Shown: piece by piece, positions 35,150 through 54,705 of the stretch
Numbering within the stretch: the first letter of the stretch is position 1
How the letters are laid out: every line of letters begins with the position of its first letter
From: an uncultured Pseudomonadales bacterium
GTDB taxonomy: Bacteria; Patescibacteriota; Microgenomatia; UBA1400; PJMF01
DNA length: 64,000 nt
Reading direction: 5' to 3'
Assembly (NCBI GenBank): GCA_964537665.1
Contig: CAZIBP010000001.1
Coordinates: forward strand, 11,972 to 75,971
The notes under the pieces: model-generated
The model's input: the letters and a program-made list of their open reading frames with translations, nothing else
Told to the model about the DNA's origin: nothing
Databases searched by the model: none
Program-made: the position numbers and the translations under genes

Positions 35150-35196
35150 AGTAATTGATAATTTGTTTAAAAAACATAAATAGATTGCTATATAGG

Positions 35197-36753
35197 TCAA
35201 TTTGAGATAGCAATTAAGGACATTTTCATAGCAGAAACATCCTGTTGAATGTTTTGATTTAGAATTAAATCTTGCTCAATCTTTTTAACCGCATGAATTA
35301 CACTGCTATGATCTCTTCCAGCAAACCATTGGCCGATTTCTTCAAGAGGAATTTGTAATTCATTGCGTAATAAATACATTGCAATATGTCTAGCCTTAAC
35401 TAGTTCTTTACTGCGCCTTTTTCCTCTAACAGCACTTTGTTTAATTCGATAATGATTAGCGACGGTTTTAATAATATCTTGAGGTTTAGCTTTAATGAAT
35501 TTTTGTTGGTTTTGCTTTATTTCAGATTGTAGAATCTTATCAATTAATTCAACATTTAAGCTTAAATTTTGCAACTCCACAGCTGATCTGATCTTTTTAA
35601 TAATTCCTTCAATCCTTCGAGCACTGTCTACTTGACTAGCAATTTTTTGTGCTAGTTCAATTGGAACATCTAATTTATTAGTTTGTGCTTTTAATAATAA
35701 AATTGCCGTTCTTAGTTCAAAAGTAGGTTGTTGGATATCAATCATTAAGCCAGCCTCAAAACGAGATCTCAAGCGGTCTTCTAAGAGGCTTATTTCTTGT
35801 GGAGGGCGATCTGAAGTTAGAATAATTTGTGAGTTAATTGCAGTTAAAGCATTAAAGGTGTGAAAAAATTCTTCCTGAACTGCGGTTTTGCCAGCGATAA
35901 ACTGAATATCATCAAGGAGGAGTAGATTTGTCTTGCGATATTTGTTTTTCAATTGAAGGGTATTATGACTTTTAATTGCTCTTACAATTTCATTAGTAAA
36001 TTGCTCACCAGAAGCATAAATAATCTCTGCGTCAGGATTCTTTTGTAATAAATGGTGGGCCACAGCATGAATTAAATGTGTTTTTCCCACTCCAACACCT
36101 CCATATAAGAAAAGGGGATTATAGCTAATACCAGGATTATTGGCGACAGCGGTGGCAGCAGCATGAGCCATTTCGTTGCTAGATGAAACAGCAAAGCTCT
36201 CAAAGGTGTAATCTTGACGCAAACCAATTTGTTGGGCTCTAACCTTTAATCTATCAAAAGTGTTGCTGCTGATATTGGCTTGAGAAAAAAGTTCTTCAAC
36301 AGTTGGAGAAGATCTAACACTTTCCCTAATAGAAAAACCCTTGTTATCTATTAAATTACTTCTGAATTGATCATAGTTTTGTTGATTAATTTCTTTTTTA
36401 GAGTCGTTGTTAATCGGTTCTTGATTTTCAATTTTTATTTGACCGGTTTTTTTGTCTAGATTTTGTTTTAGGTCGGTTACAATAAATTCGATCTCTAATG
36501 GTTTGTTAATATATTTTTCTAAAGCGGTTTTAATTTGAGAATATAAATTTGTTCGCAGGTTGGTGACATGAAATGCGGTCATACAACTAATTGTTGCAAC
36601 AGCTTTTTGATTATCTTCAATCTTAATTGAAGTGAGAGGGCTAGGAACGATCCAGGTATTAAAAAATGCAGGGCTAAGGCTGGCTTCCAAATCTAGTTTT
36701 GTCATTTGCCAAACCTGCTTAATTGTTTCAGCATCATAGACCTGCTCTGACAT
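35197..36753 (-). CDS. dnaA: Chromosomal replication initiator protein DnaA
   Basis: Walker A GGVGVGKTHLIHAV, sensor/box VII regions, and C-terminal DNA-binding domain (...KELVKARHIAMYL...). 518 aa. Confidence 0.9.
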   Translation of the reverse strand: MSEQVYDAETIKQVWQMTKLDLEASLSPAFFNTWIVPSPLTSIKIEDNQKAVATISCMTAFHVTNLRTNLYSQIKTALEKYINKPLEIEFIVTDLKQNLDKKTGQIKIENQEPINNDSKKEINQQNYDQFRSNLIDNKGFSIRESVRSSPTVEELFSQANISSNTFDRLKVRAQQIGLRQDYTFESFAVSSSNEMAHAAATAVANNPGISYNPLFLYGGVGVGKTHLIHAVAHHLLQKNPDAEIIYASGEQFTNEIVRAIKSHNTLQLKNKYRKTNLLLLDDIQFIAGKTAVQEEFFHTFNALTAINSQIILTSDRPPQEISLLEDRLRSRFEAGLMIDIQQPTFELRTAILLLKAQTNKLDVPIELAQKIASQVDSARRIEGIIKKIRSAVELQNLSLNVELIDKILQSEIKQNQQKFIKAKPQDIIKTVANHYRIKQSAVRGKRRSKELVKARHIAMYLLRNELQIPLEEIGQWFAGRDHSSVIHAVKKIEQDLILNQNIQQDVSAMKMSLIAISN

Positions 36754-39091: not shown

Positions 39092-39092
39092 A

Positions 39093-40466
39093 TTATGCTT
39101 GGGTTTTTATTGTTTGATCCGATGGTAATTCTTGATTTAAAATTGGTTCTTGAGCTTGTTCTTCAAATTTATTTTGTAAAGGGGTGATATCCTCCCCAAA
39201 TCCTTCTACTAAGTTGCTGTCAGTCGAATTATCAATTGTTAGATTATTATTAGTGGTGTTGACAGAATTAGCGCTAAGTAAGTTTGGATCTAAATTTAAA
39301 TCAAGCTCTGGCGACTGACTATTAACTACCGGATTTTCTTGATTTGGAAGTTCTGGTGGAACTGATATTGGTGACGAAATAGGTTCCGGAATAGCATTAA
39401 CTGGTTCAGGTACAGTATTTATTGGCGTTGTTTCAATAATTGGCGGCATGTCTATTTCACTAGTGATTTCATTAGCTGTTGCCGCTTTTGCTAGATTTTC
39501 AATTTGAGGGTTGTCTGTTGTGTTGTTTAAATTTGGTTCTGGATAAATAACTGTTTGGGTCGGTTCGTTACTTAAAATCTCTTCAGCACTAGGATTGGTG
39601 GTGATCGGTGAAGACAATTCTGGTTGGTTAATATCTTGCGTAGCTGTAGTAATATTTTCGCTAGCGGCTATGAGAGTATCTTCATTATTTGAAATCGGGC
39701 TGGCAGCGGGGGTTGCTGTTATTTGATCTTGAATTAGAGGGCTTTGTTGGTTGCTTGTTTGATTATTTAGTTGCATAAATTTTCCTCCAAAACTGGCCCT
39801 GACTAGGGGAGTTGTATAATTTTCGCTGCTACTGATTTCTTGTCCTTCAGCAGCTTCAGGATTGTAATTGATATAGAAATTTTGAATAATCTCTTGAGTG
39901 GTTAATTGTCTGGTAAAAAGTCCCAAACGGTTAAATTGAGCAGTTAAATGATCTCGACGTGGCTCCAAAATGTTGGTGGCTTTTTCCAGCAAAATACTTT
40001 TTTCAACACTAGTAATGTCAAAGGCAGTTTTGCCAGGTAAAACTCCAGATGGAGTAATTAATCCCATTTCTCCAGGACTAGCCGGAACAATAATATAGAA
40101 TCTTTTTTGCAAAACATTTCTTTCTTTGATTAGAGTTGCCACGAAATCTCGATATTGTTTAATTAAAGTTGCTTTGCGATCTGAACTAGCTTTCTGGACT
40201 TGCTCTTCGAGAAGTCTTAAATATTTAGTAGCATCTTTAGTTTGAGACTGAATATTAATTTGAATTGGGTAGTTGAGAGAATTAAGCAGCGAACCATAGG
40301 TAAAAATTACGGCATCCTGTTCTTGCTCAGCCAATAAACTAAAATTCATTGTGCCAATTTGTAGAATAACTGAAGCGGTACCGTCTTTTAACAGAACCAT
40401 GTCATTGACGATGTCATAGACATCAAGAAATTCTTGCGTGGTGGAACTAATCACTTTATCGCTCAT
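39093..40466 (-). CDS. Hypothetical protein with a long Pro/Asn/Thr/Ser-rich low-complexity C-terminus, between the PrgI-like and VirB4-like genes
   Basis: 457 aa. N-terminal ~230 aa globular, C-terminal half low-complexity (PxxP-rich, ...PEPVNAIPEPISSPISVPPELP...). 1-nt gap to the VirB4-like gene. Confidence 0.4.
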   Translation of the reverse strand: MSDKVISSTTQEFLDVYDIVNDMVLLKDGTASVILQIGTMNFSLLAEQEQDAVIFTYGSLLNSLNYPIQINIQSQTKDATKYLRLLEEQVQKASSDRKATLIKQYRDFVATLIKERNVLQKRFYIIVPASPGEMGLITPSGVLPGKTAFDITSVEKSILLEKATNILEPRRDHLTAQFNRLGLFTRQLTTQEIIQNFYINYNPEAAEGQEISSSENYTTPLVRASFGGKFMQLNNQTSNQQSPLIQDQITATPAASPISNNEDTLIAASENITTATQDINQPELSSPITTNPSAEEILSNEPTQTVIYPEPNLNNTTDNPQIENLAKAATANEITSEIDMPPIIETTPINTVPEPVNAIPEPISSPISVPPELPNQENPVVNSQSPELDLNLDPNLLSANSVNTTNNNLTIDNSTDSNLVEGFGEDITPLQNKFEEQAQEPILNQELPSDQTIKTQA

Positions 40467-40475
40467 GAACTGATT

Positions 40476-41345
40476 CTAGTTTACTAAATTTTGAGGCTTG
40501 ATTACAAGGGGACCTAGTATTTCACCCTTTAATTCTATTTGCGAGCTTGGATATTTGTATTCATTTTTTTCTACCAAGACAAAATAAATTCCATTACTGA
40601 GAGGTTTATTGACCTGAAAATTACCAGCTTCATCGCTTTTCATTATTCTCAAGCTCTGACCTTTCTGATCCTTAATTTCCACAATGGCGTTGACAACAGC
40701 TATGCCGTGTTGATCTAAAACCAAGCCAAAAACTTGATTGGGCAGATGATCGCCATTAGTGATAAAAGTTTGAGGGGTGTTTAATTTTCTAACTCTGGTT
40801 TGTAAACTGGGTTTTTCTTGTTTTTTTAATTCAATTTCAACATCTGTTGACCTGACCTGAACCTTGTCATATTCGCCTAAAATATTACTAATTTTTTGAT
40901 TTTCTTGCAGGTCAAATTGATCAACTCTCTCATCAGAGGGGATGCTTTTTAGATATTCAAAAATTCTTTGTTTGCGTGCGGGGTTTAAATTAACATCTGG
41001 AGCAAAAAAATCACTTTGTGTGCTGCTAATCTTATAATTAAAAAGATCAGGAATTTTGTTGGCTTTTTTCCAGAAAAACTTAGTTGGTTTATAGATGTTT
41101 TTAAAGAAAGTCTTAATCCAATGATCAAGCGGTCTTTCTTCAATTGGCACAAAAGCCACCATTGCCCCAAAACCAACAGTAATAAAAACTAAAGGCCATT
41201 TGATAATTCCGATTAAGTTGGTCTTAAAAATTGCGAAAGCAATTACCACTGCCACAGCAATCTCGGCAAATTGTTTGAGAGTCATGCTACCTATAAGGTG
41301 AAACTTATAGTTGGTGATGTCTTGAGGAATAGGATGTTGTTTCAT
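40476..41345 (-). CDS. PrgI/VirB3-like two-TM membrane protein fused to a C-terminal carboxypeptidase-regulatory-like (Ig-like) domain
   Basis: The N-terminal ~90 aa has two TMs (FAEIAVAVVIAFAIF / WPLVFITVGFGAMVAFVPI) and sits immediately before the VirB4-like gene, as PrgI does. The C-terminus GLVLDQHGIAVVNAIVEIKDQKGQSLRIMKSDEAGNFQ resembles the CarboxypepD_reg fold. Confidence 0.45.
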   Translation of the reverse strand: MKQHPIPQDITNYKFHLIGSMTLKQFAEIAVAVVIAFAIFKTNLIGIIKWPLVFITVGFGAMVAFVPIEERPLDHWIKTFFKNIYKPTKFFWKKANKIPDLFNYKISSTQSDFFAPDVNLNPARKQRIFEYLKSIPSDERVDQFDLQENQKISNILGEYDKVQVRSTDVEIELKKQEKPSLQTRVRKLNTPQTFITNGDHLPNQVFGLVLDQHGIAVVNAIVEIKDQKGQSLRIMKSDEAGNFQVNKPLSNGIYFVLVEKNEYKYPSSQIELKGEILGPLVIKPQNLVN

Positions 41346-41405
41346 CTTTTAATACTTGTTTCCTAATTAGTTTAGCAGGTTTCACTAATTTCTTGTCAAA
41401 GCAAA

Positions 41406-42401
41406 CTATTTTTCTAAAGCAGTGTTAACTGCTGGAGTAATAATTTGAGCTTGAATGTTGATGCCAGCGGCGTTAGTTAATTTTGCTTGAAACTTATAAA
41501 ATGGATAGACAATTTTTAAACTCTCATCAAGACGATAATCGACTGAAACATCGTACAAATCAGCCTCATTAATCCAATTTAAATCAATCACCTCAACCAA
41601 CTGGCTTTTGGCATCAATGATGGAAGCTTTACCATTTTTAATATTTCTAACCGCTTGATCAAGGCTAATGGTTGGCAAATCTTTAATTGGTGCAAAATTG
41701 TAGAAAAAATCTTTAAAAACCACTCTTTCTACTTGATAGTTGTTGTTAATCTTGCAAAAAAATGGGTAGCTGTTCTCATTTTGATAAAACACAGGATAAC
41801 CGTCCAATTGGTAGCTAAGTGGTACTTGGATGTAGTTGGCTCGAGCTAATTCTGTTTCTGTTTGTTCTGATCTGCCGCTTAAAAAAACCAGATGATCTTT
41901 TTGTGCAATTAAAATTAAATTAACACTATATTTTGAATAAAAATTAAGACAGCTCTTAATTGCTTCGCTTGGAATCATTTGAACTTGATTTGTGGCCTGA
42001 CTGGTATCAAGATCAAAAGCATAGCGGTTTTCATAGGTGTTTTTATTTAAAATGTAAGCTCCTTTTGCCCAATAATTTTCCAGTGAGCCAACATTTTCAA
42101 GCTTATACTCATCGATCATTTTTTGTGCTAATTCACTGGATAAATCTAGAGTTCCGTTAATTTTGTAGATCTTCATTTTTTCTGGTAATGAAATTTCTTC
42201 ACCAGAAAAAGAGATTTTTTTGAAAGTGCTTTTACTTTGATCATAGTTATTAACCACAAAGTCAGTTTGAATAACTTTTTCTTGTTGTGGAGTAATAATG
42301 GTTAAAATGGCGGAAATAAGTAGAGCAAATACGACAAAAACAACTAAAAGAGGAATAACTTTTATTTCTTTTTTAACTTTATTTTTTTGGCTTTGATTCA
42401 T
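41406..42401 (-). CDS. Bitopic membrane-anchored extracytoplasmic protein (possible VirB8/PrgL-like component; no motif support)
   Basis: 331 aa with a single N-terminal TM (VIPLLVVFVVFALLISAILTIITP). The remainder is predicted extracellular. Confidence 0.35.
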   Translation of the reverse strand: MNQSQKNKVKKEIKVIPLLVVFVVFALLISAILTIITPQQEKVIQTDFVVNNYDQSKSTFKKISFSGEEISLPEKMKIYKINGTLDLSSELAQKMIDEYKLENVGSLENYWAKGAYILNKNTYENRYAFDLDTSQATNQVQMIPSEAIKSCLNFYSKYSVNLILIAQKDHLVFLSGRSEQTETELARANYIQVPLSYQLDGYPVFYQNENSYPFFCKINNNYQVERVVFKDFFYNFAPIKDLPTISLDQAVRNIKNGKASIIDAKSQLVEVIDLNWINEADLYDVSVDYRLDESLKIVYPFYKFQAKLTNAAGINIQAQIITPAVNTALEK

Positions 42402-42404: not shown

Positions 42405-45400
42405 TTATTCATAACAAGTGGTGACGTTGTCGCCATTTTTGGGGGGATAGTTCCCATTATCTGCTTCAGGTACCAGAGTTTCAAGAATGGAAAAATTTCT
42501 AGAACTTGGACTGTAAAAAGCTCCATTAAAATCTACTTCATAATGAAGATGTTTGCCGGTTGAATTGCCGCGATTACCCATTAGACCGATAGCAAAGCCC
42601 TCGTCAACATTCATACATGAATTAGGTTGGCTGAGTTGAGAATTGGCTGATTCAAAGTGCGCAAAAAGTAATTTGCGACTGGTACCATTATCATCAAAAG
42701 TGAGAATAAAATAACAACCATAACCAGTGTCACTACACTTAATAAAACAGAGACTGCCAGGAAAAGTGGTATAAACCATACGAACAACATCATCGGGTCC
42801 ATCACTATCGGTAATATCGTAAGCATCAGCGTAACCTCCAGATTCTGGAGGACGATGTGAAGCATCATCATCAGGAATACCCTGTCCAAAAGGCAATTGA
42901 CTAATGTTACCAGTGGTTGGCCAGCAGCCAGCTCCAGCACTACACTCACCCAGACAAACTCTGGCCGCAGTAATGACATTATCAGTGCCAGACATGTAAG
43001 AGTTTTGGTAATAAAAATTAACTTCGATAGTGTTAAGAATGGCAGTGTGGTTGTAGTCGGAACTTAGATTGTCTAAAGTGTAAGTGAAAGTTAGGCTGCT
43101 GCCTGCCTCAATAATAATATTTTCACTACTACCAGATGGAATTGGTGTGGTGGGATTGGGATTGCCCACGCCTAGTGTGGGGGTTGTTGTGGGACTAAGA
43201 GAAGTATTGCTCAGTCCTCCTTGCTGACCAATAATTCCCTTGAAGTATTCAAAGTCTAAAACCTTTTCCGTTGGAATATTGGGTGGAGATTGACCTGCGT
43301 CTTCCCACGCCTTTTTACTTTGTTTAAATTTAATAGTGTCTTCAATGTTGGTGATTTGCAGCGAAAAATCTTCCTTGGGCTTGATAGTGACGGTGTATTC
43401 AATGGAGACGGGAAAAGATGGATTTTCACATTTAGTGCCATTGCTTTCTGGGCTAGGGCAACCGCTTTTAATCACGGCTGTTTTACTAATTTCGGCATAT
43501 TTGGAAGTTTTTTCAACACTATTGATGCCGGCAGCATTTGGATCATTGAAAGGGAAGTCGGTCAAAAAAGCTGAATTTAAACTAGTTTGATAAACATACA
43601 TAAAAATGGTGCTAGCCCCAACGGTGGCAATTACAGCTTGACCGGCAGTAATCATCGCTCCAGAAGAAATACCACTAGTCAGAGTTTTAAGGCCCTGTGC
43701 TGCTTGGGTGGTAGCGACTTGGTTTTGAGTAGCTTGTGCTGTTAGTCCCTGCTTGCCAAAACCACCAATTCCTTCGCTGATCTGATTAATTGCTTTACCT
43801 CCACCAGTGAAAAAATCCTTAATTCCACCCCAAGCGTTACGCAAAAAAATTGCCGCAGGAGCCAAGATCAGTAATAATGGCAACATGGAGCCAAGCGCCG
43901 CCAAAATTCCCAAACCAAGCAACCAAGGCCAATTTTTCTTGATAAATTCAAGAACTTTTTCCAGGCCCATTTCTATTAGTTTTTCTTTGAGTTGTTTGAC
44001 AAGTGGAACTGCTGCTTCAGCAGCTCGCAGAGCTTCTCCCCAGCCACCAGCCGCATCAAGAGCTAGATAAAGCCCTTCACTTAGGGCTTTGGTGGCTAGT
44101 TTTTTGCTCTGCTGACCCAGAGCACTGTCCATAAAATCAGTGCTCTGATAATTACTATTTGAGGCAAAAGCTTGCTGAGCCCAACCATCTCCATTCTGAT
44201 AAAAGGCATTGTTTCTAGCAAAGTTGGTGGCGCGCTCAAAAATACTAGTCCCAAGCGTTTCATTAGCTTGGAGCATATAGAAATCCATGGGATTAATTTG
44301 AGGAAGGACTTGGGTTTGGAAAATTTGGATACTATATTCTTGAATAGTATAGCCAGGCAAATAAAAATCAAAATATACTTTGAGAGTTTTTTGCTGCTCT
44401 GCTTCGCTCATCTTGGCCAATTGTTCTTCTAGGTTTTTTTTGATGAGGTCTTGTTGTTGGCCAATAAATTGGTTGACTTCAGCTCCATCCACTTTGGCAT
44501 TAGCTGAGCCAGCTAATTTTTCTGCAATTTCTCTGCCGCCATAAGTGAGATTGAGAGTGCCTAAATTGCGTAATTGAGCAATTTTTTGAGGATTTTTGCT
44601 AATTTCTTTAAGTAATTGTTGGGCTTCTTCCGGAGTGTATTTTTCTTGGGCAAATTCTTGGCGAATTTCACTAGCCCAGATAATCCTTTTTCTTTTCCAG
44701 TAAAAAATAATTAAGTTGGCTAACTCTTCTCGATGATTATTAAACTCAGAACGTTCGATGCTAGTGCCAAAAATATTAACAAATCTGTTGTAATCAAAGT
44801 TTTTTGGATCAGGAATCAGGTATTCTGGAGGCAAACCTTGTTGAATGAAGACTTCGATCAAAGGTCGAACGTTATCGGTGATTAATTTAATTTTAAAATT
44901 ATCTTGATTACCAATAATTTGGCGAATTTTCTCTCCAAAAATTTGTTCCAGTCGTCCTTCATCTTGGACAATATTTAATTCTGATTCGATTTTCCTAGCA
45001 AAGTCTTGATTACTTTGACCTTCATCTTGTTTTTGCTGCAGAATTGCTTGGGCCTGAGCAGTGTTAGTGGAGTTTTCCTTGTCATTTTTGATGCGAGGAC
45101 TAAGTTTGTCGTTTGTGAGTTTTTCTTTTTCGTTGGCTTTAATTTTCGCTGCTGCCTTTTGACCATCTTTGGCAATTTCGCGAACGCTATCATTAAGCAA
45201 CTTAAGACCATGAACATCCATAAGCAAGCCGAGTGCGGCTTGATTGCTAAAATTAATACGCTTAGATTGCTCTCTAATTAAACTGTCCAAAGAGAATTGA
45301 CCGCTTAGAAGTAGGTTTTCCACCTGTAAAAAAGCTCGATCCATTAGTTGACGTCGCACATCAAGGGGTAGCTGATCAAAAGTAACCTGAGTACCCGGTG

Positions 45401-46235
45401 GCAAGCCAATTTTGGCTAGAGAAGCCTCATTAAAATATCTATTAAGAGCTTGATTGATGGTGATGATGGAGAGTGATTGGAGGTAAAGTCGAGACTGAGG
45501 ATCAAGCTCTGAGATTTTAATGGGGGTTGTGTCAGTGTTAGGCTCTTGAGTTTTTTTTGGCTCGCGACTTTGACTGGATTCAGCTTCGCCACCACCTCTC
45601 TCTGTTTCTTGAGGCTTTTTTTGACCTGGAAAAAGTCCAGCCAGGCCTAGTCCGCCAGTACTAGTGGAGGTGACACTTGGCGTTGTTTCCGCAATTTCCT
45701 CCTCAATTTTTTCTTCTGGAGCAATACTTGGTGCCAAGATTAAATAAATTAATTTAATGCGTTCAACAATCCTTCTCGAATAATCTATGTACTCAATTCT
45801 TTGTAGGTCTTCAATGCTAACCTTATCACCTGCTGGTTCCACACCCACTAATTTAAAAGTGCTTTCCAGTCGGTCTAATTCTTGTCTTTGAGTTGAGCTG
45901 ATGGAAATGTTGTTGCTACTTAAAGAAGTGCGGATTTGTTCAACAAAATTAACCAAGTCAGACAAAAACAAAAAAGGCACTTTGCCTCTGGGTGGGGCAA
46001 TACCATTTAAAATGTCAGCAGCAGTGCTAAGATCAAATTCGCCGCCATAACTAAAGCCTTCAATCGCAAAATCACCTTTGACTTTTTTGTCTCCTGCTGC
46101 TTCAGCATAAAAATTGCTAATCCAGCCAGCACTTCTCTGGAGAATTTCACGAATTTGAGCGGCACTGAGACTCTCAACGCCGGCTAGTTTCTTCAGTTCG
46201 ATTCGAGTTTTTTGATTAATTGCTTCTGCTGCCAT
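42405..46235 (-). CDS. Giant membrane protein with a C-terminal M23 (LytM-type) metallopeptidase domain; candidate cell-wall hydrolase of the T4SS-like apparatus
   Basis: 1276 aa. Central TM cluster (NWPWLLGLGILAALGSMLPLLLILAPAAIFL; AMITAGQAVIATVGASTIFMYVY). C-terminal KLLFAHFES ... GNRGNSTGKHLHYEV matches the M23 blocks (xLYAHLS / GSTGxSTGPHLHFE). Confidence 0.65.
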   Translation of the reverse strand: MAAEAINQKTRIELKKLAGVESLSAAQIREILQRSAGWISNFYAEAAGDKKVKGDFAIEGFSYGGEFDLSTAADILNGIAPPRGKVPFLFLSDLVNFVEQIRTSLSSNNISISSTQRQELDRLESTFKLVGVEPAGDKVSIEDLQRIEYIDYSRRIVERIKLIYLILAPSIAPEEKIEEEIAETTPSVTSTSTGGLGLAGLFPGQKKPQETERGGGEAESSQSREPKKTQEPNTDTTPIKISELDPQSRLYLQSLSIITINQALNRYFNEASLAKIGLPPGTQVTFDQLPLDVRRQLMDRAFLQVENLLLSGQFSLDSLIREQSKRINFSNQAALGLLMDVHGLKLLNDSVREIAKDGQKAAAKIKANEKEKLTNDKLSPRIKNDKENSTNTAQAQAILQQKQDEGQSNQDFARKIESELNIVQDEGRLEQIFGEKIRQIIGNQDNFKIKLITDNVRPLIEVFIQQGLPPEYLIPDPKNFDYNRFVNIFGTSIERSEFNNHREELANLIIFYWKRKRIIWASEIRQEFAQEKYTPEEAQQLLKEISKNPQKIAQLRNLGTLNLTYGGREIAEKLAGSANAKVDGAEVNQFIGQQQDLIKKNLEEQLAKMSEAEQQKTLKVYFDFYLPGYTIQEYSIQIFQTQVLPQINPMDFYMLQANETLGTSIFERATNFARNNAFYQNGDGWAQQAFASNSNYQSTDFMDSALGQQSKKLATKALSEGLYLALDAAGGWGEALRAAEAAVPLVKQLKEKLIEMGLEKVLEFIKKNWPWLLGLGILAALGSMLPLLLILAPAAIFLRNAWGGIKDFFTGGGKAINQISEGIGGFGKQGLTAQATQNQVATTQAAQGLKTLTSGISSGAMITAGQAVIATVGASTIFMYVYQTSLNSAFLTDFPFNDPNAAGINSVEKTSKYAEISKTAVIKSGCPSPESNGTKCENPSFPVSIEYTVTIKPKEDFSLQITNIEDTIKFKQSKKAWEDAGQSPPNIPTEKVLDFEYFKGIIGQQGGLSNTSLSPTTTPTLGVGNPNPTTPIPSGSSENIIIEAGSSLTFTYTLDNLSSDYNHTAILNTIEVNFYYQNSYMSGTDNVITAARVCLGECSAGAGCWPTTGNISQLPFGQGIPDDDASHRPPESGGYADAYDITDSDGPDDVVRMVYTTFPGSLCFIKCSDTGYGCYFILTFDDNGTSRKLLFAHFESANSQLSQPNSCMNVDEGFAIGLMGNRGNSTGKHLHYEVDFNGAFYSPSSRNFSILETLVPEADNGNYPPKNGDNVTTCYE

Positions 46236-46297: not shown

Positions 46298-49126
46298 TTG
46301 GTTCTTTTAGATCAAAAATGGTATAATAACAGTGTATCTAAAGATAGAAGACTTATGATTAAACCAGGTCAAGAAAATCCAGTTGAAAATGAACAAGGCT
46401 TTGAAACTGCTGATAGTTGGATTGCCAGAAAAGAAGAAGAACTCCAAGAATTAATTATCGAGATAGAAACACAACTGAGCTTAGACGGAATTAGTAAAGG
46501 TCAAAAACACAATAAAGATAAGGAAATAGAGTTAACTTTTAATGCTGGAGCAAAAGCAATCATTTTAGAATTGGAAAAAAGAAAAAGAAAAGCTCCAGTA
46601 GATGTTCCAAAGTATGAAGCTTTCAGGTTAAGTATTTTTACTTTAAGAGAAAAGTTTTTTAAGGATTGGGGAGTGGCTGTTGATAAAAATGAAGAGGTTT
46701 TGAATGTTGGTAAAATGACTCTTCGTGAAGTTGCCGACTATGTCTTAGAAAAAGAACTTGTTTTTTGGACTGGTGAACATGATGGCTGGACAGATGAGAA
46801 TGACCGAAGAGTAGTCGATGCTTTGGTCCAAAGATTATGGAAAGACAAAGACAAGATTTCTGGATTGACCAAAGATGCTATACCTGGAGAGAAAAGAACT
46901 GATGGCTCACCACATTACTTTGCAGATTTAGACGTCAGAGAGATAGTCAGTGATTTACAGATATTAGGTTTATTTGGGATTCTGAATGAAAAAGGTGCTG
47001 AAAGAAAAGATGACGGCGTAGCAGAAGGTAGGATAACTCAACTAGAATCTGCAATGGCTACTTTGCAAATTTCCAAAGAAAGGCTTAATGAAACTACCCT
47101 AGCTCACCCTAGAACTGGTTTGGTGCTATACGAGATGCTAAGAAGAATGAAAGATCAGCCAGCTTTGAGGGATGGTAAGACGCCGGTTTTAAACGAAGGA
47201 AAATTGCCACCTGGTTTTGGAAGAGCTCCGGTTAACGATAGAATAGTTCAGAGAGGAAGTACGAAGATTGTCTTATATGGAGATAGATATAAAGAAAGTT
47301 TTGACGAATCTGGAAACGTGACTAGTCGTGAAGTTGTTGAATATACTCCTCTGGAAGCTGGAGATACGCTAATTATAGATTATTCCCAAACAACCGATGG
47401 TTTTGTTAGAAAAGCCTTGCCAGACAGAGTTGTTGAGAGAAATGGAATGGATGTTTTGTTAGTGGGAGACAGACTAAATAAAATAGTGAATAAGGATGGA
47501 AAAGAGATTGGTGCAAGATGGTATGATCCAGATCAAGCTCTTCCAACTGATACTAATTTGTATCAATTTGATCCTAGATTTTCTTACGAAACTTTAGCCA
47601 GTGACACTGGTAAGGATACTTTAAAGAAGTATGCAGCACACCTTTTATCTTTGATAGAGGAGCAAAGATTGGAAGAAAAAGATGCTAAAGATCAAAGTAG
47701 AGTTTTAGATTGGTCAAAAATTCACTTTAAAGAATTAATTGGTTTTAAATTTCCAGATCCAAGTGATGAAAAATTTGGTAAGGGAGATATTAGAAGATTA
47801 GAAATGTATGCTAGATACTTATTTTTTTGTTTTCCTTTCCTTACTAATATCTTAGCTATTAGACAAGAGAGAACACAGACTCCTTCTCATGGTTTTAACA
47901 ATAAGGACATTCCTTTTGTTTGGATTTTTAACATGCTTGGATTTATTTCTCATAAATCACAAAGATATGCAAACTCAGACAATGCTTACTACTACATGCT
48001 TAAGTTTTTTAAACCACTAAGAGAGGGAGCATATGGTGCTGGAGGTGAAGCGAGAAGATTAAATGCGGTGAGAGATTTGATTATTAAATACGATAAAGTT
48101 TTTAGTGATGATCAGGATAATGTTTCAGTTATCCCCAATATGCCCTATGGCTCATCAGTTTTTCACACAGCGCTCAGCATGTTGTCTTTGGCTCCTGGTG
48201 ATACCTCTGCTTTGAGCGGTAGAGCTGAGTTATATGATGGGACTATCCTAGATGGAACACCAGACAAGCCTGTTTTTCTTAGTTTAGGTGGAGTAAGAGC
48301 TCCAAAAAGAAAAGAGCCATATAATTTTAGTTTGCTTTACACTTCAATTAGAGCTTGGGATACTCTCACAACAGGTTCTTTACAATCCTTGCCTGGAAAT
48401 TTAACAATCGCTTCTATTGCTGAGGGTGGTGGAAAGGATAAATCTTTTATATCTCAGAAATATGGAGACAACGTTGGTCAGGCCAAGATGAGTGACACGA
48501 GAACAAGAGAAAAGGATAAGATTCCGAGCCTCAAGGAATTTAATCATTTGAAATTAGCTGCTAATTTAATTTGGGATACTGTACAAAGAATTTTCAGAGA
48601 ATACCCGGCAAATAGTATTGAGGCAAGAATTAAACTTTACGAAGAGCTTGAAAAAGGTTTTAGACATACTGCTGAGGTTGGTGGTTTATCTGCTGGTGAT
48701 TCAGCTGAAGTTCTAACTTGGGTTTTGGATAAAATGTCCAAACCAGATAGAGACGGCAAATTATATGGTAAAGGAGTTGGTGGATTTGCCGGCATGAACC
48801 CTTGTTTGGCATATAGAGAGGCAACAATTGATGGTAAGAGGGGTAAAGAAGTTTTTGAATATGTTGAGGCTCTTTGGAACTACAAACACTCTGATGCTGA
48901 AGGAAAGGTTACTAAACCATTTCCTTTCAAACTAGTTGCCGGAACCAGTGGTACTGGTTATGTTGCTATAAACAAACAATTTGTGAAGCATGCTTTTGAT
49001 CCCGATCCAGAAATAGAAGAATATAAAGGTATGCTTTATGGTTATAAGATGGAAAAGGGCGAAAAGAAAAAAGCAAGATTGCCAGAGCCTATTGCTAGAA
49101 TTAACCTAGATAAGCACGAAGACTAA
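46298..49126 (+). CDS. Large (942 aa) soluble hypothetical protein, opposite strand, embedded in the T4SS-like cluster
   Basis: No TM, no nucleotide-binding or known catalytic motif recognisable by eye. Divergently transcribed from the M23 giant gene across a 62-bp gap. Confidence 0.5.
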   Translation: MVLLDQKWYNNSVSKDRRLMIKPGQENPVENEQGFETADSWIARKEEELQELIIEIETQLSLDGISKGQKHNKDKEIELTFNAGAKAIILELEKRKRKAPVDVPKYEAFRLSIFTLREKFFKDWGVAVDKNEEVLNVGKMTLREVADYVLEKELVFWTGEHDGWTDENDRRVVDALVQRLWKDKDKISGLTKDAIPGEKRTDGSPHYFADLDVREIVSDLQILGLFGILNEKGAERKDDGVAEGRITQLESAMATLQISKERLNETTLAHPRTGLVLYEMLRRMKDQPALRDGKTPVLNEGKLPPGFGRAPVNDRIVQRGSTKIVLYGDRYKESFDESGNVTSREVVEYTPLEAGDTLIIDYSQTTDGFVRKALPDRVVERNGMDVLLVGDRLNKIVNKDGKEIGARWYDPDQALPTDTNLYQFDPRFSYETLASDTGKDTLKKYAAHLLSLIEEQRLEEKDAKDQSRVLDWSKIHFKELIGFKFPDPSDEKFGKGDIRRLEMYARYLFFCFPFLTNILAIRQERTQTPSHGFNNKDIPFVWIFNMLGFISHKSQRYANSDNAYYYMLKFFKPLREGAYGAGGEARRLNAVRDLIIKYDKVFSDDQDNVSVIPNMPYGSSVFHTALSMLSLAPGDTSALSGRAELYDGTILDGTPDKPVFLSLGGVRAPKRKEPYNFSLLYTSIRAWDTLTTGSLQSLPGNLTIASIAEGGGKDKSFISQKYGDNVGQAKMSDTRTREKDKIPSLKEFNHLKLAANLIWDTVQRIFREYPANSIEARIKLYEELEKGFRHTAEVGGLSAGDSAEVLTWVLDKMSKPDRDGKLYGKGVGGFAGMNPCLAYREATIDGKRGKEVFEYVEALWNYKHSDAEGKVTKPFPFKLVAGTSGTGYVAINKQFVKHAFDPDPEIEEYKGMLYGYKMEKGEKKKARLPEPIARINLDKHED

Positions 49127-49192: not shown

Positions 49193-50866
49193 TTATTTTT
49201 TGCTTTTATTGAAATAGTCGCCCATCATGGTAGTGAGATCTTCTGGATCAAAAGCTCTTCCCTCAGCGATTCTATCTAGTTGTATTCTGACCTTCTTGCC
49301 AGATTCAAAACCTTTTTGTAATCCACCTGCCCCATTTTCCATGCCTCTTGTTTTGCTTCCAGTGACACCACCAAAGGCAATTGGAGTTTCATCATCACCA
49401 GTTCTAGAATATCCTTGCCAACCAGCCTTGACGGCTTTCAGTAAGCTTTCATCTGGGTTATCTTTTCTAAATGCTGCTCCAGCTCTTACTCCACCATAAG
49501 CACCTTGTAATCCAGCACCAATTAGAGGAGCAGTGATTGTGCCTTCTTTAATTCTACCCATTGCATCTTTAGCCAACTGTCCAAAAATACCTTCGTCTAC
49601 GCCCATAGCTTTTTTGACTTGCTGCATAATTTCTGGAATAACTAACAAGACACCAATGCCAAGAATGACCGGAACAATGGCGCCTTGTCCTTGACCCATT
49701 AAAAATGGCGGCATAAAACCACCACCAAAAGAAGCATCCAAAGCTTGGCCGGTACCCTGCATGCTGCGAATTGGTGCAGTTAACATGCGTTGCACTAGGA
49801 CACAAAGTAAGACTACTGGCCAAAGGATTAAGTTGCCGACAAGATCTTTGATCCATTTACCAAAAACATTTTTACCTGGAAAAGCTCCAAGCATCAAAAT
49901 AATTGGCGAAAAAATAATTTGGATCAAAACTGCCACGTAAGTTTTGACCAACTCAAAAAATACCTTAAAAGTGGCGAAAAGAATGGCAATGCCAATAATG
50001 ACCGTGCCAAGTAAACTAGACATCCAAGCTAAAGCTTCACCCACAAAACCAATATTTAGCGCATCTTCCATGAATTGTTCGATCGCGTTCTGGGTGGTAC
50101 CAGTGGTGCCCTTAAACATTAAGCCCACTAGGCCAAAAATATTACGAGTGACGATATCTGGACCTTCAGTGAAAAAGCCAGCCAACATGTACATCACCAC
50201 ATACATCAGATCAATCATAAAGCCAGCAATGGCGTAGGAAAAAGTAACTGCCAGCATAGCGATGATAATATTGGGAATGGCTTGCTGAGCAGTGATGGCG
50301 GCTTGGCCAACTTTGGTTCTAAACATGATCATAAAACCAATGACCAAGAAGGCGACTACAAAAAATAGATAAGCGAGATTGCGAAAAGCTTTCCAGGTTT
50401 CTAAGATTGGATCGAGGGCTGAAAAACCTAAGCCTTGAGCTTGTGCCTCTGGGATAATTTTCGCCGATTTCATCACATCTGCCACATAAGAGCGAGCACT
50501 GGCTGGTGGGGTGTAAAGAGCTACGATGCCTTTGTTTACATCCCCAAGCACTCCATAACCGATCTGTTTCTCTAGGGCTTTTCTCTCACTAGTGGTCATG
50601 CTACCGTCATTAGGAATGGCGGCCATACCGATGGCGTGCAGGTTGATATTGGTGAAAGTGTTGGACAAACTCTCGGCATCAAACTTTTCTTTGTCGGCAT
50701 TTTTGCTGGAAAAAGCAGTCACACTTTTATCAGTTGACTCATTGGTGAAAATGCCAGCTAGCCAATCAAGAATTCCGACTGCTCGCGCAGGTTTAACTGA
50801 CGTCAAAAAACAAGCCAAAACCAAAGACAAAATCAACAATAGGCGAGAAGTTTTCTGCTGTATCAT
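49193..50866 (-). CDS. VirB6/TrbL/PrgH-like polytopic membrane protein (inferred)
   Basis: 557 aa. Signal peptide, then at least 6 long hydrophobic segments (e.g. ALAWMSSLLGTVIIGIAILFATFKVFFELVKTYVAVLIQIIFSPIILMLGAF) and a Gly-rich C-terminal tail; architecture typical of VirB6-family proteins. Confidence 0.45.
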   Translation of the reverse strand: MIQQKTSRLLLILSLVLACFLTSVKPARAVGILDWLAGIFTNESTDKSVTAFSSKNADKEKFDAESLSNTFTNINLHAIGMAAIPNDGSMTTSERKALEKQIGYGVLGDVNKGIVALYTPPASARSYVADVMKSAKIIPEAQAQGLGFSALDPILETWKAFRNLAYLFFVVAFLVIGFMIMFRTKVGQAAITAQQAIPNIIIAMLAVTFSYAIAGFMIDLMYVVMYMLAGFFTEGPDIVTRNIFGLVGLMFKGTTGTTQNAIEQFMEDALNIGFVGEALAWMSSLLGTVIIGIAILFATFKVFFELVKTYVAVLIQIIFSPIILMLGAFPGKNVFGKWIKDLVGNLILWPVVLLCVLVQRMLTAPIRSMQGTGQALDASFGGGFMPPFLMGQGQGAIVPVILGIGVLLVIPEIMQQVKKAMGVDEGIFGQLAKDAMGRIKEGTITAPLIGAGLQGAYGGVRAGAAFRKDNPDESLLKAVKAGWQGYSRTGDDETPIAFGGVTGSKTRGMENGAGGLQKGFESGKKVRIQLDRIAEGRAFDPEDLTTMMGDYFNKSKK

Positions 50867-50963: not shown

Positions 50964-51788
50964 ATGATCGATCATGCACAAACTGATAAATTCAGGGACA
51001 TTCTAGAGCTTAGCAAAAATACACTGTTGATTTTTAAGGAGAGTAAAGATCTTGATTTATTTCTTGCCAGTTATTGTTTATTTTCCTTTCTAGTGAGAGA
51101 AAAAGAAATTCGTCTTTTAACTCCCAAATTTAAACTAAAACTTCCCAAGTCATTAACAGATTTAATCGACCTTAAAAAGATTGAGACAGAACTGGGTAAA
51201 GAAAATTTATTGATTAGTTTTCCTTACCTTGAAGAGCAAGTCGACAAAGTTTCTTACTATATTGGTGAACACGATCAGCGTTTTTATCTCACTATCAAAC
51301 CAAAAAGTGGTGTAGCGGCAATTGATAGTTCTAAAGTGGAATTTTCTTATGCCGGAACCCAAGCTGATTTGTTAATTCTATGTGGAGTGGAGGATTTGGA
51401 AAAATTGGAACAGCTCTATTTTGCTTATGAGGATTTGTATAAAACCAATAATAATCATGTGGTGACCCTCAATCACTTTATTCCAGATTTTGGCACTCTC
51501 AACTTAGATATTTCAGGAGCTAGTTCTTATTGTGAGGCGGTTTACTATTTGCTCAAAGATTTGGGAGAAGATAAACAAGATTTTTTGGCCAAAAGTGATT
51601 TACCAACCTTACTACTTTATGGGATTGAATATAGTAGTCGTGGTTTACAATCTATGGACACCACAGCGAGCACTTTCCTCAGCGTGGCAGAATTACTAAA
51701 GCTTGGTGCTACTCGGCTTTTTAAATTAGATTTGCCAGCAAACGTAAAAACTATTGGGCAGCAGCCCCAGATTCATTCAATAAAATAG
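50964..51788 (+). CDS. Hypothetical protein (possibly a degenerate DHH/NrnA-like fold)
   Basis: 274 aa, soluble. Weak resemblance to DHH phosphoesterases, but the DHH catalytic residues are not evident. Confidence 0.3.
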   Translation: MIDHAQTDKFRDILELSKNTLLIFKESKDLDLFLASYCLFSFLVREKEIRLLTPKFKLKLPKSLTDLIDLKKIETELGKENLLISFPYLEEQVDKVSYYIGEHDQRFYLTIKPKSGVAAIDSSKVEFSYAGTQADLLILCGVEDLEKLEQLYFAYEDLYKTNNNHVVTLNHFIPDFGTLNLDISGASSYCEAVYYLLKDLGEDKQDFLAKSDLPTLLLYGIEYSSRGLQSMDTTASTFLSVAELLKLGATRLFKLDLPANVKTIGQQPQIHSIK

Positions 51789-54678
51789 CGGTGGTGATTG
51801 AGCCTGGTCGATTATATTCAGGATATTTATTGCCGTTACTTAAACTCTGACACATGTTTGATCCAGCGTAGCAATAGGAAGCAGCATCGGTCAGCAATTG
51901 TTCTTTGTAAGCGTCGTCAAAGCCATATTCAGCTTGTGATTGATCGAGGCTTTTTCTTAATTCTTGCATGGCAAAATCAGTTGGTTCGCTAGTGCAGTTA
52001 AATTCCACATAGTCCAGACAATAGATTAGATCCATGTCGCTGTGACGTTCGTCAATCCAGCCAAGCGGGTGAGGATGATCCTCAGCGGTAAATTGAGCCT
52101 CACATTTACCTCCATCACGCCATCTGGTATCTCTGAGTTCGCCTTCTTTATCTGTGCTACAGTTCATATTGCCTGGTCCGTTGTAAGCACCAATGGCTTC
52201 AGTTAAATCTTCATAGGGAATATTTTCTTTATTGAAGGACCCTGGCCAGAAACTCAAAAGATGTTCCATGGCAGTTTTGGCATCTTCTTTGAGCGAACCA
52301 CCTCTGAGAGCATTGCCATCCCAGACAGAACCATTTGGATCTAGGCCAGCTTCTGTCCAGTGGATGCCGGCCACCACCTCACAAGGAATGCCGGTTTCTT
52401 CTTCTGCATATTCATAGGCTTCGATTAGTTCGTCGGTAATCTTGGGAGCAATGTCTGCGGTAAACATGTCTTTGGCGTACTGAGGGATTCCGCTGGTAGG
52501 TGGTAAACCGGTGACATTTTTGAAAGCTTCTCCTTTACAGAAACTTTGGTCTTGCTTGCCTTCTGGATCACCGCTACAGCGACCCAGAAACATGTCTTCG
52601 ACTCTTTGACAAGAAACAATGTAGTCGTAAGTTTGACTGAAAGTATTGCGTAGTTTTTGCTGAATTTTGCGCACCATAAAGCCTAGTCCAAAGTCAGGAA
52701 TTAGCAGCTCACCTTTACTCGAGCTTTCTTCTTTGCTGGCTGTATCACTAAAGCCAAAACCAAAGGCGTATTTGGTACATTCCTCAACGATTTCGCCATC
52801 TTCATTTTCAACTTCAGTACATTCATCTAGTGGATGAATTTCATCGGCGGCACTGATGCCAAAATTAACATCTTTGATAGTGTAGTACTTGGGAATCGCC
52901 CCTTGTTTGCTGGTGCCATCGTCATTGGTCATGTCCTCAATAATGTTGGTTCTAACTAGTTCGAAGAAATCCTCTTCATTCCAAAAAATACTCAAGGCTT
53001 TATTAACGTCTTTAACATTTTCACCAATTGGCAAAACTAAATAAGCATTAACAATCATGGGTGGATCAAGTGGAGGAGGGTCTTCATCAATGACCAATTT
53101 CCACTCAAAATCATTCACATGTAGCGAATATAGCTCATCAACAATTGCTTTGTTCATTTGTTCTCTATAGCTATATTCTTTCATTTCTTTTGCAGCAGGG
53201 GTAAAAAGGTCGCCAGCTCTTTCCCAATTTAAATCTTCTTGATTAAAAACAAACTCAATCCCGCTAGCAGTGGCTTGTCTTTCGTTCAAATTAAGGTTAA
53301 AGCTAGACATGTCAATTTCTTCTCCAGTTTCAGTGCTGGTGTTTTCTATCACTCTAAGAGTGTCGTTGCGACAGGTTATAGACGTTCCATTGATGATGCT
53401 GATCAGCGTTCTTTCTAGTGGCTTCAGACATTTTGGATAGGGACAACCGATGACTGGTTTGGTGGGAGCTAAGGCTGATTGATAAAGCAACTCTCGTTTA
53501 TCAGCTTGATCTTTGAGGTCTTTGTCATTTTGTTCTTTGGGTTGTATGACCATCTTTGTCAATTCCAAAGTGTCGATATTACCAGCAATTCTAGATTTGT
53601 TGGTGCCAAAATCAGGAATTTTGAAGGCAATAAAAGTGGGAGCCTCCACTTGGGAATCTACTTGTGGATCTGCTTGGAGAAAGTAAAACTTGTCTCCTTC
53701 ATCGTATTTGCCTGGATCTTGAGTGGGAACTAAAACCAAAAATGCCAAGCGATATAAAGTATCAAAATCAATGCCAATGCGATTAACTCCCTCTCTTAGT
53801 TTGGCAATCTGATCTAGATCAACGTCGGGTGGAGCATAACTGGTATTACTAACACTACTGTCTCCACCAGTGATGTCAAGGCAAACCTGTTGATAAAGCT
53901 GATCGTCTGCAAGCTCTGGTCTAATTGCTTGAAACCAATCCAGCAGTTCAACTAGATTAAAATTAACGTCCACCACGTGTTCGGTTGATTTAAGATCTTT
54001 AATTTCAGCATCAGTCACAACTCTACTGCTACCTTCTTCGTCAACAGCAATTTTGAACTCGTACTTTTTGTCGATGGTGCATTCATCAGTCACTTCGTCA
54101 CAAATTTGTTTAGCAGCTAAAAGATTTTGAGCTTTAGCCAGACATTGTTGATAGGAGGACAGAACTCTTTTGCTAACCCCAGCAGAATTTAACATGTAAC
54201 TGTCATGAAGGGTTTGATAGTTGGCTCCAAACATGCCCTCTAGTGAACTGTTTTTAATTGTTTCTTCTTTATTTTCCAAACCACGGAACATGGGAATTCT
54301 AGCTTTACTTAAATCAGTGACGTAGGGCGCAATGCCACTAAAAACAGTTGGATTGAGGCCATTGTAGAAACTTTCTTCTGGGGGAATGCTGTCACTAAAA
54401 AATTTGTTGATATCTCCCAGTAATTTTTTATCAATTGCCCACTGCATGGCAGCACAATGTGCCTCATATCCTTGATCTTTAATCATGGTGGGCAAAAGAT
54501 CTTCCCAACCATAACTGTTACCGTCTGGCAGAAACATTGGCATCAGGGTGAACTGATTAACTACATCGCTAGTTGCGGTGTCACTGCTTTGAGCTTTGAC
54601 TTCTAGCTTTGTGGAAATTAGCAATAAAGCAGAACAGAACACACCCACAATCGCTTTTTTTGAAAATCGAGTAAACAC
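51751..54678 (-). CDS. Large (975 aa) secreted hypothetical protein
   Basis: N-terminal signal peptide (AIVGVFCSALLLISTKLEVKAQS). Many Cys, acidic. C-terminal region ...GIPCEVVAGIHWTEAGLDPNGSVWDGNALRGG... of unknown family. Confidence 0.5.
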   Translation of the reverse strand: MFTRFSKKAIVGVFCSALLLISTKLEVKAQSSDTATSDVVNQFTLMPMFLPDGNSYGWEDLLPTMIKDQGYEAHCAAMQWAIDKKLLGDINKFFSDSIPPEESFYNGLNPTVFSGIAPYVTDLSKARIPMFRGLENKEETIKNSSLEGMFGANYQTLHDSYMLNSAGVSKRVLSSYQQCLAKAQNLLAAKQICDEVTDECTIDKKYEFKIAVDEEGSSRVVTDAEIKDLKSTEHVVDVNFNLVELLDWFQAIRPELADDQLYQQVCLDITGGDSSVSNTSYAPPDVDLDQIAKLREGVNRIGIDFDTLYRLAFLVLVPTQDPGKYDEGDKFYFLQADPQVDSQVEAPTFIAFKIPDFGTNKSRIAGNIDTLELTKMVIQPKEQNDKDLKDQADKRELLYQSALAPTKPVIGCPYPKCLKPLERTLISIINGTSITCRNDTLRVIENTSTETGEEIDMSSFNLNLNERQATASGIEFVFNQEDLNWERAGDLFTPAAKEMKEYSYREQMNKAIVDELYSLHVNDFEWKLVIDEDPPPLDPPMIVNAYLVLPIGENVKDVNKALSIFWNEEDFFELVRTNIIEDMTNDDGTSKQGAIPKYYTIKDVNFGISAADEIHPLDECTEVENEDGEIVEECTKYAFGFGFSDTASKEESSSKGELLIPDFGLGFMVRKIQQKLRNTFSQTYDYIVSCQRVEDMFLGRCSGDPEGKQDQSFCKGEAFKNVTGLPPTSGIPQYAKDMFTADIAPKITDELIEAYEYAEEETGIPCEVVAGIHWTEAGLDPNGSVWDGNALRGGSLKEDAKTAMEHLLSFWPGSFNKENIPYEDLTEAIGAYNGPGNMNCSTDKEGELRDTRWRDGGKCEAQFTAEDHPHPLGWIDERHSDMDLIYCLDYVEFNCTSEPTDFAMQELRKSLDQSQAEYGFDDAYKEQLLTDAASYCYAGSNMCQSLSNGNKYPEYNRPGSITTAILLNESGAAAQ

Positions 54679-54705
54679 GAGTTAATTATACTAATAATCA
54701 GTAGA

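Follow-up and report, generated by a model that had tools for sequence, protein, structure and literature searches.

The stretch of DNA analysed here (hereafter the window) comprises 64,000 nucleotides of contig CAZIBP010000001.1 (GCA_964537665.1, positions 11,972 to 75,971) and contains an oriC-proximal chromosomal type IV secretion system (T4SS) locus of Microgenomates-group (Woesebacteria-like) Patescibacteria. Between its genes for a giant M23 peptidase and for a polytopic membrane protein, and on the strand opposite to both, lies a gene (hereafter the slot gene) for a protein of 923 amino acids (aa) that is soluble and cytoplasmic as judged by hydropathy. A member of the same protein family occupies this position in 12 of the 13 syntenic T4SS loci that were sampled, all from Microgenomates/Woesebacteria-like Patescibacteria, and comparison of the encoded proteins shows a locus that is conserved except at the slot, which is hypervariable and discordant in its divergence with the genes that flank it. 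The slot protein is a candidate for a dedicated, diversifying cargo or effector enzyme of this T4SS, an assignment that we hold tentatively and at somewhat less than an even chance.

The Patescibacteria account for a large share of bacterial diversity. Southlakia, the one Patescibacterial species that is open to genetic manipulation, requires its T4SS for epibiotic growth, and the T4SSs of Patescibacteria have no recognisable relaxase or coupling protein and a substrate that is unknown (PMC10633639, PMC12102498, PMC12857230). The slot family is a concrete candidate, amenable to testing, for either the cargo of these systems or the determinant of their specificity in Microgenomates, and even if its members were parts of the apparatus they would constitute a new class of T4SS component. 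The slot gene is also the fastest-diverging gene of its locus, and the family is usable as a marker for typing these loci.

The slot gene is a real, single-copy gene, and its boundaries and putative promoter are as follows:

46355..49126 (including the stop codon), + strand: slot gene, encoding the soluble 923 aa protein that is here the founding member of an undescribed T4SS-locus family
46298..46327, + strand: putative slot-gene promoter, read by eye directly from the sequence

The + strand frame is open without interruption over 46298..49126, and a reading made from the sequence alone (hereafter the sequence-only reading) had counted 942 codons in it from the TTG at 46298. The frame stands, but the most likely start is the ATG at 46355 and the TTG is improbable as a start codon. 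A database entry identical to the slot protein is 923 aa long and begins at this ATG, and the N-terminus of homolog P0004 resembles that of the slot protein ('MI..P...QGFETAD'). The TTG is further disfavoured because it sits in a likely -35 hexamer (TTGGTT, 46298-46303) upstream of a perfect extended -10 element (TGGTATAAT, 46319-46327), the spacer between the two being 18 nt. A scan for consensus promoters and terminators gave no useful result and missed this promoter because its -35 element agrees with the consensus at 3 of 6 positions; TATAAT or TGnTA(T/A)AAT is nevertheless found just 5' of the slot ATG in six of the ten relatives examined (viz. L004, L010, L012, L014, L015, and L016). The divergent orientation of the slot gene and the M23 giant gene was described correctly in the sequence-only reading, whereas the gap between them is 119 bp from the ATG and not 62 bp. 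The G+C content of the slot gene (0.369) and that of its third codon positions (0.253) both match the genome, for which reason a recent foreign acquisition was rejected, as was a chance open reading frame (ORF) in view of the conserved family and the confident predicted fold.

The slot protein family and its divergence

On the sequence evidence, the slot protein belongs to an undescribed family and is therefore not the orphan that it had first been taken for. A word-indexed search identified four relatives with 50–62% identity, and the same kind of search with a 24-sequence alignment recovered five close members only. In an exhaustive search of 1.84 billion representatives, the slot profile matched 25 clusters (at 50% identity), mostly proteins of 1000–1250 aa aligning to residues ~200–923, and further divergent members are present in the syntenic loci. 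The family is very divergent, its members being 17–62% identical, and it is represented by one copy per T4SS locus and by none elsewhere in the DNA examined. A scan of GTDB genomes for slot loci found two loci only, a first metagenome scan found none, and a second yielded L007. No description of the family was found in the literature, including papers on Patescibacterial T4SSs (PMC10633639, PMC12102498).

The earlier observation that the slot protein has no transmembrane (TM) segment, no Walker motif and no recognisable signature agrees with hydropathy (maximum KD19 = 1.41 and an N-terminus that is not signal-like, by hydropathy only), with a motif scan in which neither Walker A nor Walker B was detected, and with family-library searches, in which the protein had no match in Pfam, NCBIfam, PHROGs or PADLOC. 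Sequence and profile searches of PDB gave nothing under E=0.1, and Pfam searches of 24 family members, even at E<=10, gave scattered single matches only, which we took as noise. No match to a housekeeping enzyme was obtained in the family libraries, in PDB by sequence or profile, or in the fold searches, and no sequence or fold likeness was found to the known T4SS apparatus families (viz. VirB1–B11, Prg, Trs, and Con; PDB and BFVD for folds). A tblastn search of plasmids and phages with the slot protein gave no matches; hence a mobile-element origin of the slot gene is unsupported.

Where the sequence context is sufficient, the sampled loci share a common arrangement, which consists of the giant (−), the slot gene (+), the ~560 aa polytopic gene (−), a DHH-like gene of ~300 aa (+), a gene for a protein of ~1000–1400 aa (−) and the pilins. 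Gene-by-gene colinearity is seen in L001/L003, L004, L007 (by BLAST), L010, L011, L012, L014, L015, and L016, and the partial loci on short contigs (L008 and L009) contain the expected flanking genes. Loci L012–L016 were obtained by probing with homologs of the better-conserved 274 aa DHH-like gene next to the polytopic gene, and the slot genes of L014 (E=3e-35) and L016 (E=2e-61) are detected by profile where BLAST with the window protein fails. The position is thus kept even where the slot protein is only 17–25% identical. Neither of the two outcomes that the sequence-only reading had named as refuting, a clear match to a housekeeping enzyme and absence from the syntenic clusters of relatives, was observed. 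The exception among the 13 loci is L013, from a Woesebacteria-labelled relative, in which genes for proteins of 355 aa and 824 aa fill the slot (4527–8180, +) and the flanking T4SS genes are all conserved. These two genes show no relationship to the slot family (hmmsearch --max E>9, hhalign probability <1%, family motifs absent) and no detectable similarity in Pfam.

Extra small + strand genes are located just 5' of the slot gene in L011 (3317–5091), L014 (3521–4339) and L007 (8459–9172). One of them, in L011, encodes 410 aa and shares 33% identity with the N-terminal part of the neighbouring slot protein, which suggests a partial duplication of the slot gene, and a 237 aa ORF in L007 has a weak match to the N-terminal region of the family, suggestive of a split slot gene.

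The discordance between the slot and its flanks is seen most clearly in a closely related set of seven loci (viz. the window, L001, L004, L012, L013, L014, and L015). Over their full lengths, the flanking proteins of this set are 58–80% (polytopic), 57–77% (DHH-like), 44–68% (giant) and 53–71% (975 aa protein) identical, whereas the slot proteins are 53–62% identical among the window, L001 and L004 only, and all other pairs show at most ~32% identity over part of their length or no detectable similarity. The two loci with the most similar flanks, L004 and L012 (giant 68%, polytopic 71%, DHH-like 75%, secreted protein 71%), have slot proteins that are 30% identical over 47% of their length. Similarly, the DHH-like protein of L014 is 72% identical to that of the window and its slot protein is found by profile only, and in L008 the polytopic protein is 67% and the slot protein 26% identical to the window's. 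This discordance indicates at least five deeply divergent slot types and one replacement among close relatives.

Conserved residues and predicted structure

Within the slot protein, variability is greatest at the N-terminus, and the conserved core lies in the C-terminal half. In an alignment of 23 sequences that includes the most divergent members (17–18% identity), nine residues are invariant (viz. G255, Y411, G419, T507, H512, R537, G708, K711, and P857; numbering of the window's slot protein) and a further 13 are at least 90% conserved (A223, L230, P252, L414, F493, L496, T509, Y538, G561, G629, M712, G777, and R915). No acidic residue is invariant, D585 being 87% conserved. The principal motifs are the following:

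47585..47614, + strand: Y411-x2-L-x4-G419-[RK] (YETLASDTGK), Y411 and G419 invariant in the 23 sequences
47825..47890, + strand: F-x-FPFLT...Q..T507-x-T509-x-x-H512, T507 and H512 invariant
47963..47968, + strand: R537-Y538 (RYG/RYA motif), R537 invariant
48476..48490, + strand: G708-x-A-K711-M712, G708 and K711 invariant
49088..49105, + strand: C-terminal tail motif P912-x-x-R915-x-[GN] (PIARIN), 12 residues from the C-terminus

Across the alignment P912 is 87% and R915 96% conserved, and a P-x-x-R-x-G-like motif is found 12–17 residues before the C-terminus in most members of the family. It lies near the end of a C-terminal tail modelled with low confidence (predicted local distance difference test score, pLDDT, ~54 over the last residues) and is followed by residues that are polar and often Lys-rich. 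The possibility that a Lys/Arg-rich extreme C-terminus serves as a common signal was considered and is not relied on, such a composition being weakly enriched (6 of 16 slot-encoded proteins versus ~10% of background ORFs).

An AlphaFold2 model built on an alignment of 24 divergent sequences reached a pLDDT of 87.2 and a predicted template modelling score of 0.82, all five models lying between 83.8 and 87.2 in pLDDT; a model built on an alignment of 5 sequences was unusable (pLDDT 44.9). Besides a helical region (residues 123–270), the model comprises three parts:

residues 19–104, 46409..46666, + strand: N-terminal three-helix bundle, the sole part with structural matches
residues 296–404, 47240..47566, + strand: beta-rich insertion domain (strands of the AlphaFold2 model)
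residues 405–923, 47567..49123, + strand: conserved alpha/beta core, structural relatives undetected (PDB, BFVD)

The N-terminal region differs in length across the family. The insertion domain, in or near which an internal repeat (DR[IV]V.R.G...L.GDR) occurs at residues 294–311 and 356–374, is mostly missing from many members (alignment occupancy 0.19–0.69 across residues 281–400). The remote-homology and structural comparisons proposed in the sequence-only reading were carried out; beyond the PDB profile searches described above, Foldseek with the slot model gave a best E of 0.81 against PDB and 0.19 against BFVD, and the solved or viral structures that match do so in the N-terminal three-helix bundle only. 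Some 800 confidently modelled residues of the predicted structure thus have no detectable solved relative in PDB or BFVD, and the slot protein probably possesses a new fold.

Candidate functions of the slot protein

We favour a cargo or effector role because the slot protein is linked to a T4SS whose substrate is unknown, appears cytoplasmic, is fixed in position, has a structure without matches, diverges discordantly with its flanks, and possesses invariant polar residues and a tail motif. Properties of the effector class that it shares are co-inheritance with the T4SS, the lack of a Sec signal and of TM segments (by hydropathy), and a faster, discordant evolution, the last of these being typical of effectors without defining them. 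Of the three roles first proposed for this gene (viz. substrate or effector, novel structural component, and regulatory scaffold), the evidence leans, without proof, to the first, because the slot is hypervariable in a conserved locus and the C-terminal tail motif is fixed in position. As a cargo, the slot protein would be synthesised in the cytoplasm, recognised through the motif in its flexible C-terminal tail by a complex of VirB4/TrsD, PrgI and the membrane, and exported onto or into the host bacterium. A putative pocket of conserved Tyr, Thr, His, Arg and Lys residues, free of metal-binding acidic residues, may bind or act on an anionic substrate. The surface of the protein may diversify through host-driven selection, such that recognition and activity would rest with the conserved tail and core and the remainder would vary at the interface with the host.

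Other T4SS loci are known to encode a dedicated soluble partner; what is undescribed is the slot family, with its apparent fold and the behaviour of its alleles. The CagA protein of the Helicobacter pylori cag T4SS is a large (~1000 aa or more), soluble, locus-encoded and strain-polymorphic protein that is apparently the single main cargo of its system. CagA is not known to have relatives in sequence beyond its own family, or in fold. The slot protein resembles CagA in being large, soluble, encoded in a T4SS locus, fast-evolving and without outside relatives, but the two are similar in neither sequence nor structure. CagA is no enzyme and lacks an invariant constellation of polar residues such as the slot protein has; most of its polymorphism falls in the C-terminal EPIYA repeats, it needs the coupling protein Cagbeta and the chaperone CagF, and it acts in eukaryotic cells. 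The Xanthomonas-type effectors (X-Tfes) are cytoplasmic proteins that are delivered by a T4SS into other bacteria, are diverse among strains and possess a conserved C-terminal element, the XVIPCD of ~120 aa that is bound by VirD4. They consist otherwise of variable N-terminal toxin domains of known enzyme families, are accompanied by adjacent immunity genes and usually occur in several copies per genome, whereas the slot protein has a conserved core of ~500 aa and a short tail, no apparent VirD4 or immunity gene and one copy per locus.

Several observations weigh against a cargo role. No type IV coupling protein (T4CP; VirD4-like receptor) is encoded in the 64-kb window. The tail motif corresponds to no characterised T4SS signal, and, as regards the charged C-terminal tails that had been suggested as a check, the family's tails are polar and often Lys-rich and the extreme C-terminus of the window's own subtype is acidic (KHED). 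Single-copy, position-fixed orthologs with an invariant site are rare among classic effectors and fit an apparatus or assembly factor as well. The fast divergence, which is too deep for an analysis of nonsynonymous to synonymous substitution rates (dN/dS), could reflect weak constraint in place of host-driven selection. Finally, the essential T4SS locus of Southlakia, as tabulated, has no gene in a comparable position and its non-pilin genes are all on one strand. A further-reaching proposal, in which the slot protein is the substrate long sought for the essential T4SS of Patescibacteria, a translocated enzyme with a hitherto unseen fold and a Tyr/Thr/His/Arg/Lys active site whose deeply divergent and recombining alleles would determine the range of host bacteria open to a Microgenomates episymbiont, is in our estimation unlikely.

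Of the alternatives to a cargo, the one that survives best, which we consider doubtful and yet a serious contender, is that the slot protein is a cytoplasmic apparatus or assembly component that stays in the producer cell, where its tail and core would dock onto VirB4/TrsD or onto the ~770-residue cytoplasmic domain of the giant, and where it would gate, energise or recruit substrates in place of the missing coupling protein. A position and orientation that are constant in 12 of 13 loci despite deep divergence, a single copy in each locus and the lack of a T4CP in the cluster speak for such a component, and the invariant residues and conserved tail would suit a conserved binding partner. The slot protein diverges, however, far faster than, and out of step with, every candidate partner (45–80% identity for the partners where the slot proteins have 30% or less), it is replaced in L013 by unrelated genes with the rest of the locus intact, and it has neither an NTPase motif nor any likeness in sequence or fold to a known T4SS component. 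The T4CPs (viz. VirD4, PcfC, and TcpA) face the cytoplasm, associate with T4SSs and handle substrates, a role that is unfilled in the window cluster; they possess TM segments at the N-terminus and an NTPase domain with Walker A/B motifs, both lacking from the slot protein, which has no T4CP profile match.

It is improbable that the slot protein has a function unrelated to secretion, whether as a regulator or scaffold in the cytoplasm or in a defence-type role, and that its fast-evolving gene just happens to lie in a permissive hotspot between the genes of the T4SS locus. Its own promoter-like element, its opposite orientation, the swapping of the slot content in L013 or its supplementation by small genes in L011 and L014, and the lack of a tie to any T4SS family could all be accommodated by such a function. 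The same family, however, fills 12 of 13 slots, which is not the behaviour of a hotspot for random cargo, and it is confined to these loci in the DNA examined; furthermore, the PADLOC, PHROGs, plasmid and phage searches were empty and the base composition equals that of the genome.

The least probable of the developed alternatives, to which we give very little weight, is a new nucleic-acid-processing enzyme, functionally like a relaxase or DNA pilot protein, that would carry out metal-independent phosphoryl chemistry by means of its invariant Tyr, His, Arg and Lys residues and may work with the degenerate DHH (RecJ/NrnA-like) neighbour in the transfer of DNA or nucleotides through the T4SS. 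This alternative draws on the invariance of Y411, T507, H512, R537 and K711 with no invariant acidic residues, on a size and cytoplasmic location typical of relaxases, on the conservation of the DHH-like neighbour in the locus and on the weak similarity of VirB4 to CedB and CedD. It is countered by the lack of any HUH/3H, Rep_trans, tyrosine-recombinase or nuclease match by profile or fold, by a hypervariability and a replacement in L013 that are unexpected for a DNA-processing enzyme, and by the absence of the catalytic His motif from the DHH-like neighbour. Placed N-terminal of the remaining invariant residues, the Tyr agrees with the order of no pentad known to us. No oriT-like element was found, although no search aimed at one was made.

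Other candidates were rejected, viz. an ATPase or T4CP (no Walker motifs), a conjugative relaxase of the MOB classes (no fitting HUH/3H, Rep_trans or PD-(D/E)XK motif, no profile match in 24 members, one invariant His only, no fold match), a hotspot for random cargo (the same family in 12 of 13 slots) and a polymorphic toxin system (the protein varies most at its N-terminus and has its core in the C-terminal half, and the genes on either side encode conserved T4SS membrane proteins and not immunity proteins).

The surrounding locus and other features of the window

The slot gene lies, as the sequence-only reading had stated, inside a T4SS cluster, which includes VirB4, TrsD, PrgI, the M23 giant and two T4SS pilins. 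Along the window, the order runs yidC, dnaN, dnaA, the VirB4 ATPase part, the TrsD/VirB4-N-like gene, the PrgI/VirB3-like gene, the bitopic 331 aa gene and the M23 giant, followed by the slot gene (+), the 557 aa polytopic gene, the 274 aa DHH-like gene (+), the 975 aa gene and two VirB2-like pilins, and then by SpoIID, tRNA-Arg and VanW. The neighbours of the slot gene are located as follows:

36884..42401, − strand: core T4SS genes, viz. VirB4 ATPase part (735 aa), TrsD/VirB4-N-like (457 aa), PrgI/VirB3-like (289 aa) and bitopic (331 aa)
42405..46235, − strand: M23 giant, the divergent neighbour, 1276 aa (Pfam M23 match, hydropathy, syntenic homologs)
49193..50866, − strand: polytopic membrane protein, the convergent neighbour, 557 aa (hydropathy, synteny)
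50964..51788, + strand: soluble 274 aa DHH-like protein (Pfam, PDB profiles, homologs)
51751..56306, − strand: 975 aa protein with a signal-like N-terminus, then two T4SS (VirB2-like) pilin genes

The giant is a VirB1-like wall hydrolase, with ~770 N-terminal residues free of TM segments, a TM segment at residues 772–790 and a C-terminal M23 peptidase domain. The VirB4-C (735 aa) and TrsD (457 aa) proteins have no TM segment by hydropathy, and together with the long N-terminal part of the giant they overturn the earlier description of the slot protein as the only large cytoplasmic protein of the cluster. The 557 aa polytopic protein has a signal-like N-terminus and about six more hydrophobic segments.

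The location of T4SS genes adjoining dnaA and dnaN has been described in Microgenomatia and Paceibacteria (PMC12102498). The window locus resembles that of Southlakia epibionticum ML1 (SEML1_0006–0019) and the loci of Quinonero-Coronel et al. 2025 in being chromosomal and similar to the FATA class of mating-pair formation systems (MPF-FATA-like), with VirB4, TrsD, PrgI, an M23-bearing giant and VirB2-like pilin arrays and without a relaxase. It differs from the Southlakia locus, as tabulated, which has no counterpart of the slot gene or of the DHH-like gene. A dnaA-adjacent T4SS typical of Patescibacteria and 55–88% identical per gene to that of the window is found in L003 (CAZEEV010000002.1, GCA_964511345.1), whose record label 'uncultured Pseudomonadales bacterium' looks wrong because of this typically Patescibacterial locus.

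VirB4 is split in two at 36884–40466 (−) into the 457 aa TrsD/VirB4-N-like protein and the 735 aa CagE/TraG P-loop part, a division preserved in relatives, and the ATPase part is weakly similar to the archaeal DNA importers CedB and CedD. In the distant relative L010, a RecF/SMC_N-like gene (1058–3367) stands beside the TrsD-like gene instead of the VirB4 ATPase part, which must be encoded elsewhere in that genome. The PrgI/VirB3-like protein (40476–41345, −) possesses a C-terminal CarboxypepD_reg-like (Ig-like) domain that is also found in L001, L004 and L007.

The 274 aa neighbour, first regarded as unassignable, is not wholly so: it resembles the DHH family weakly but consistently, and is best regarded as a degenerate DHH-like protein, regularly present in T4SS loci of this type. 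Its match to Pfam DHH (E=5.4e-4, 20.7 bits) is below the family cut-off of 28.1, and its four best PDB profile matches, all to DHH-family proteins, are weak (E 0.16–0.66). It has at least 203 homologs, some of which are named 'nanoRNase/pAp phosphatase' by JGI, and the close ones carry the NCBI label 'Candidatus Woesebacteria' (Microgenomates group, Patescibacteria). The family keeps a DxD-like 'DLD' and further Asp residues, and no conserved His is found in it at the DHH position. The 3' ends of this gene (+) and of the convergent 975 aa gene (−) overlap by 38 bp (51751–51788), and a convergent overlap of ~30–40 bp is likewise present in L001, L002, L012, L013, L014, and L015.

Elsewhere in the window, a stretch of low G+C content (28001–36000; 0.28–0.30 versus 0.37 for the window) spans the gene for a 949 aa DUF4012 protein and the yidC, dnaN and dnaA region and would fit the AT-rich surroundings of an origin. 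At 14183–17140 (−), the gene for an ATP-dependent DNA ligase of archaeal/eukaryotic type (616 aa) lies beside that for a Fic/DOC-domain protein (362 aa), and these genes are followed by a RecF/SMC_N-like gene (18045–19139). A tRNA-Ile with a UAU (tat) anticodon is predicted at 2919–2995 (+; ARAGORN, with the tRNA confirmed by Rfam). AUA is usually decoded in bacteria by a lysidine-modified CAU tRNA, and this tRNA may allow decoding independent of tilS. A mevalonate-pathway cluster (3452–10195, −), notable for a reduced Patescibacterial genome, encodes a diphosphomevalonate decarboxylase-like protein, a GHMP kinase, a thiolase and an HMG-CoA reductase.

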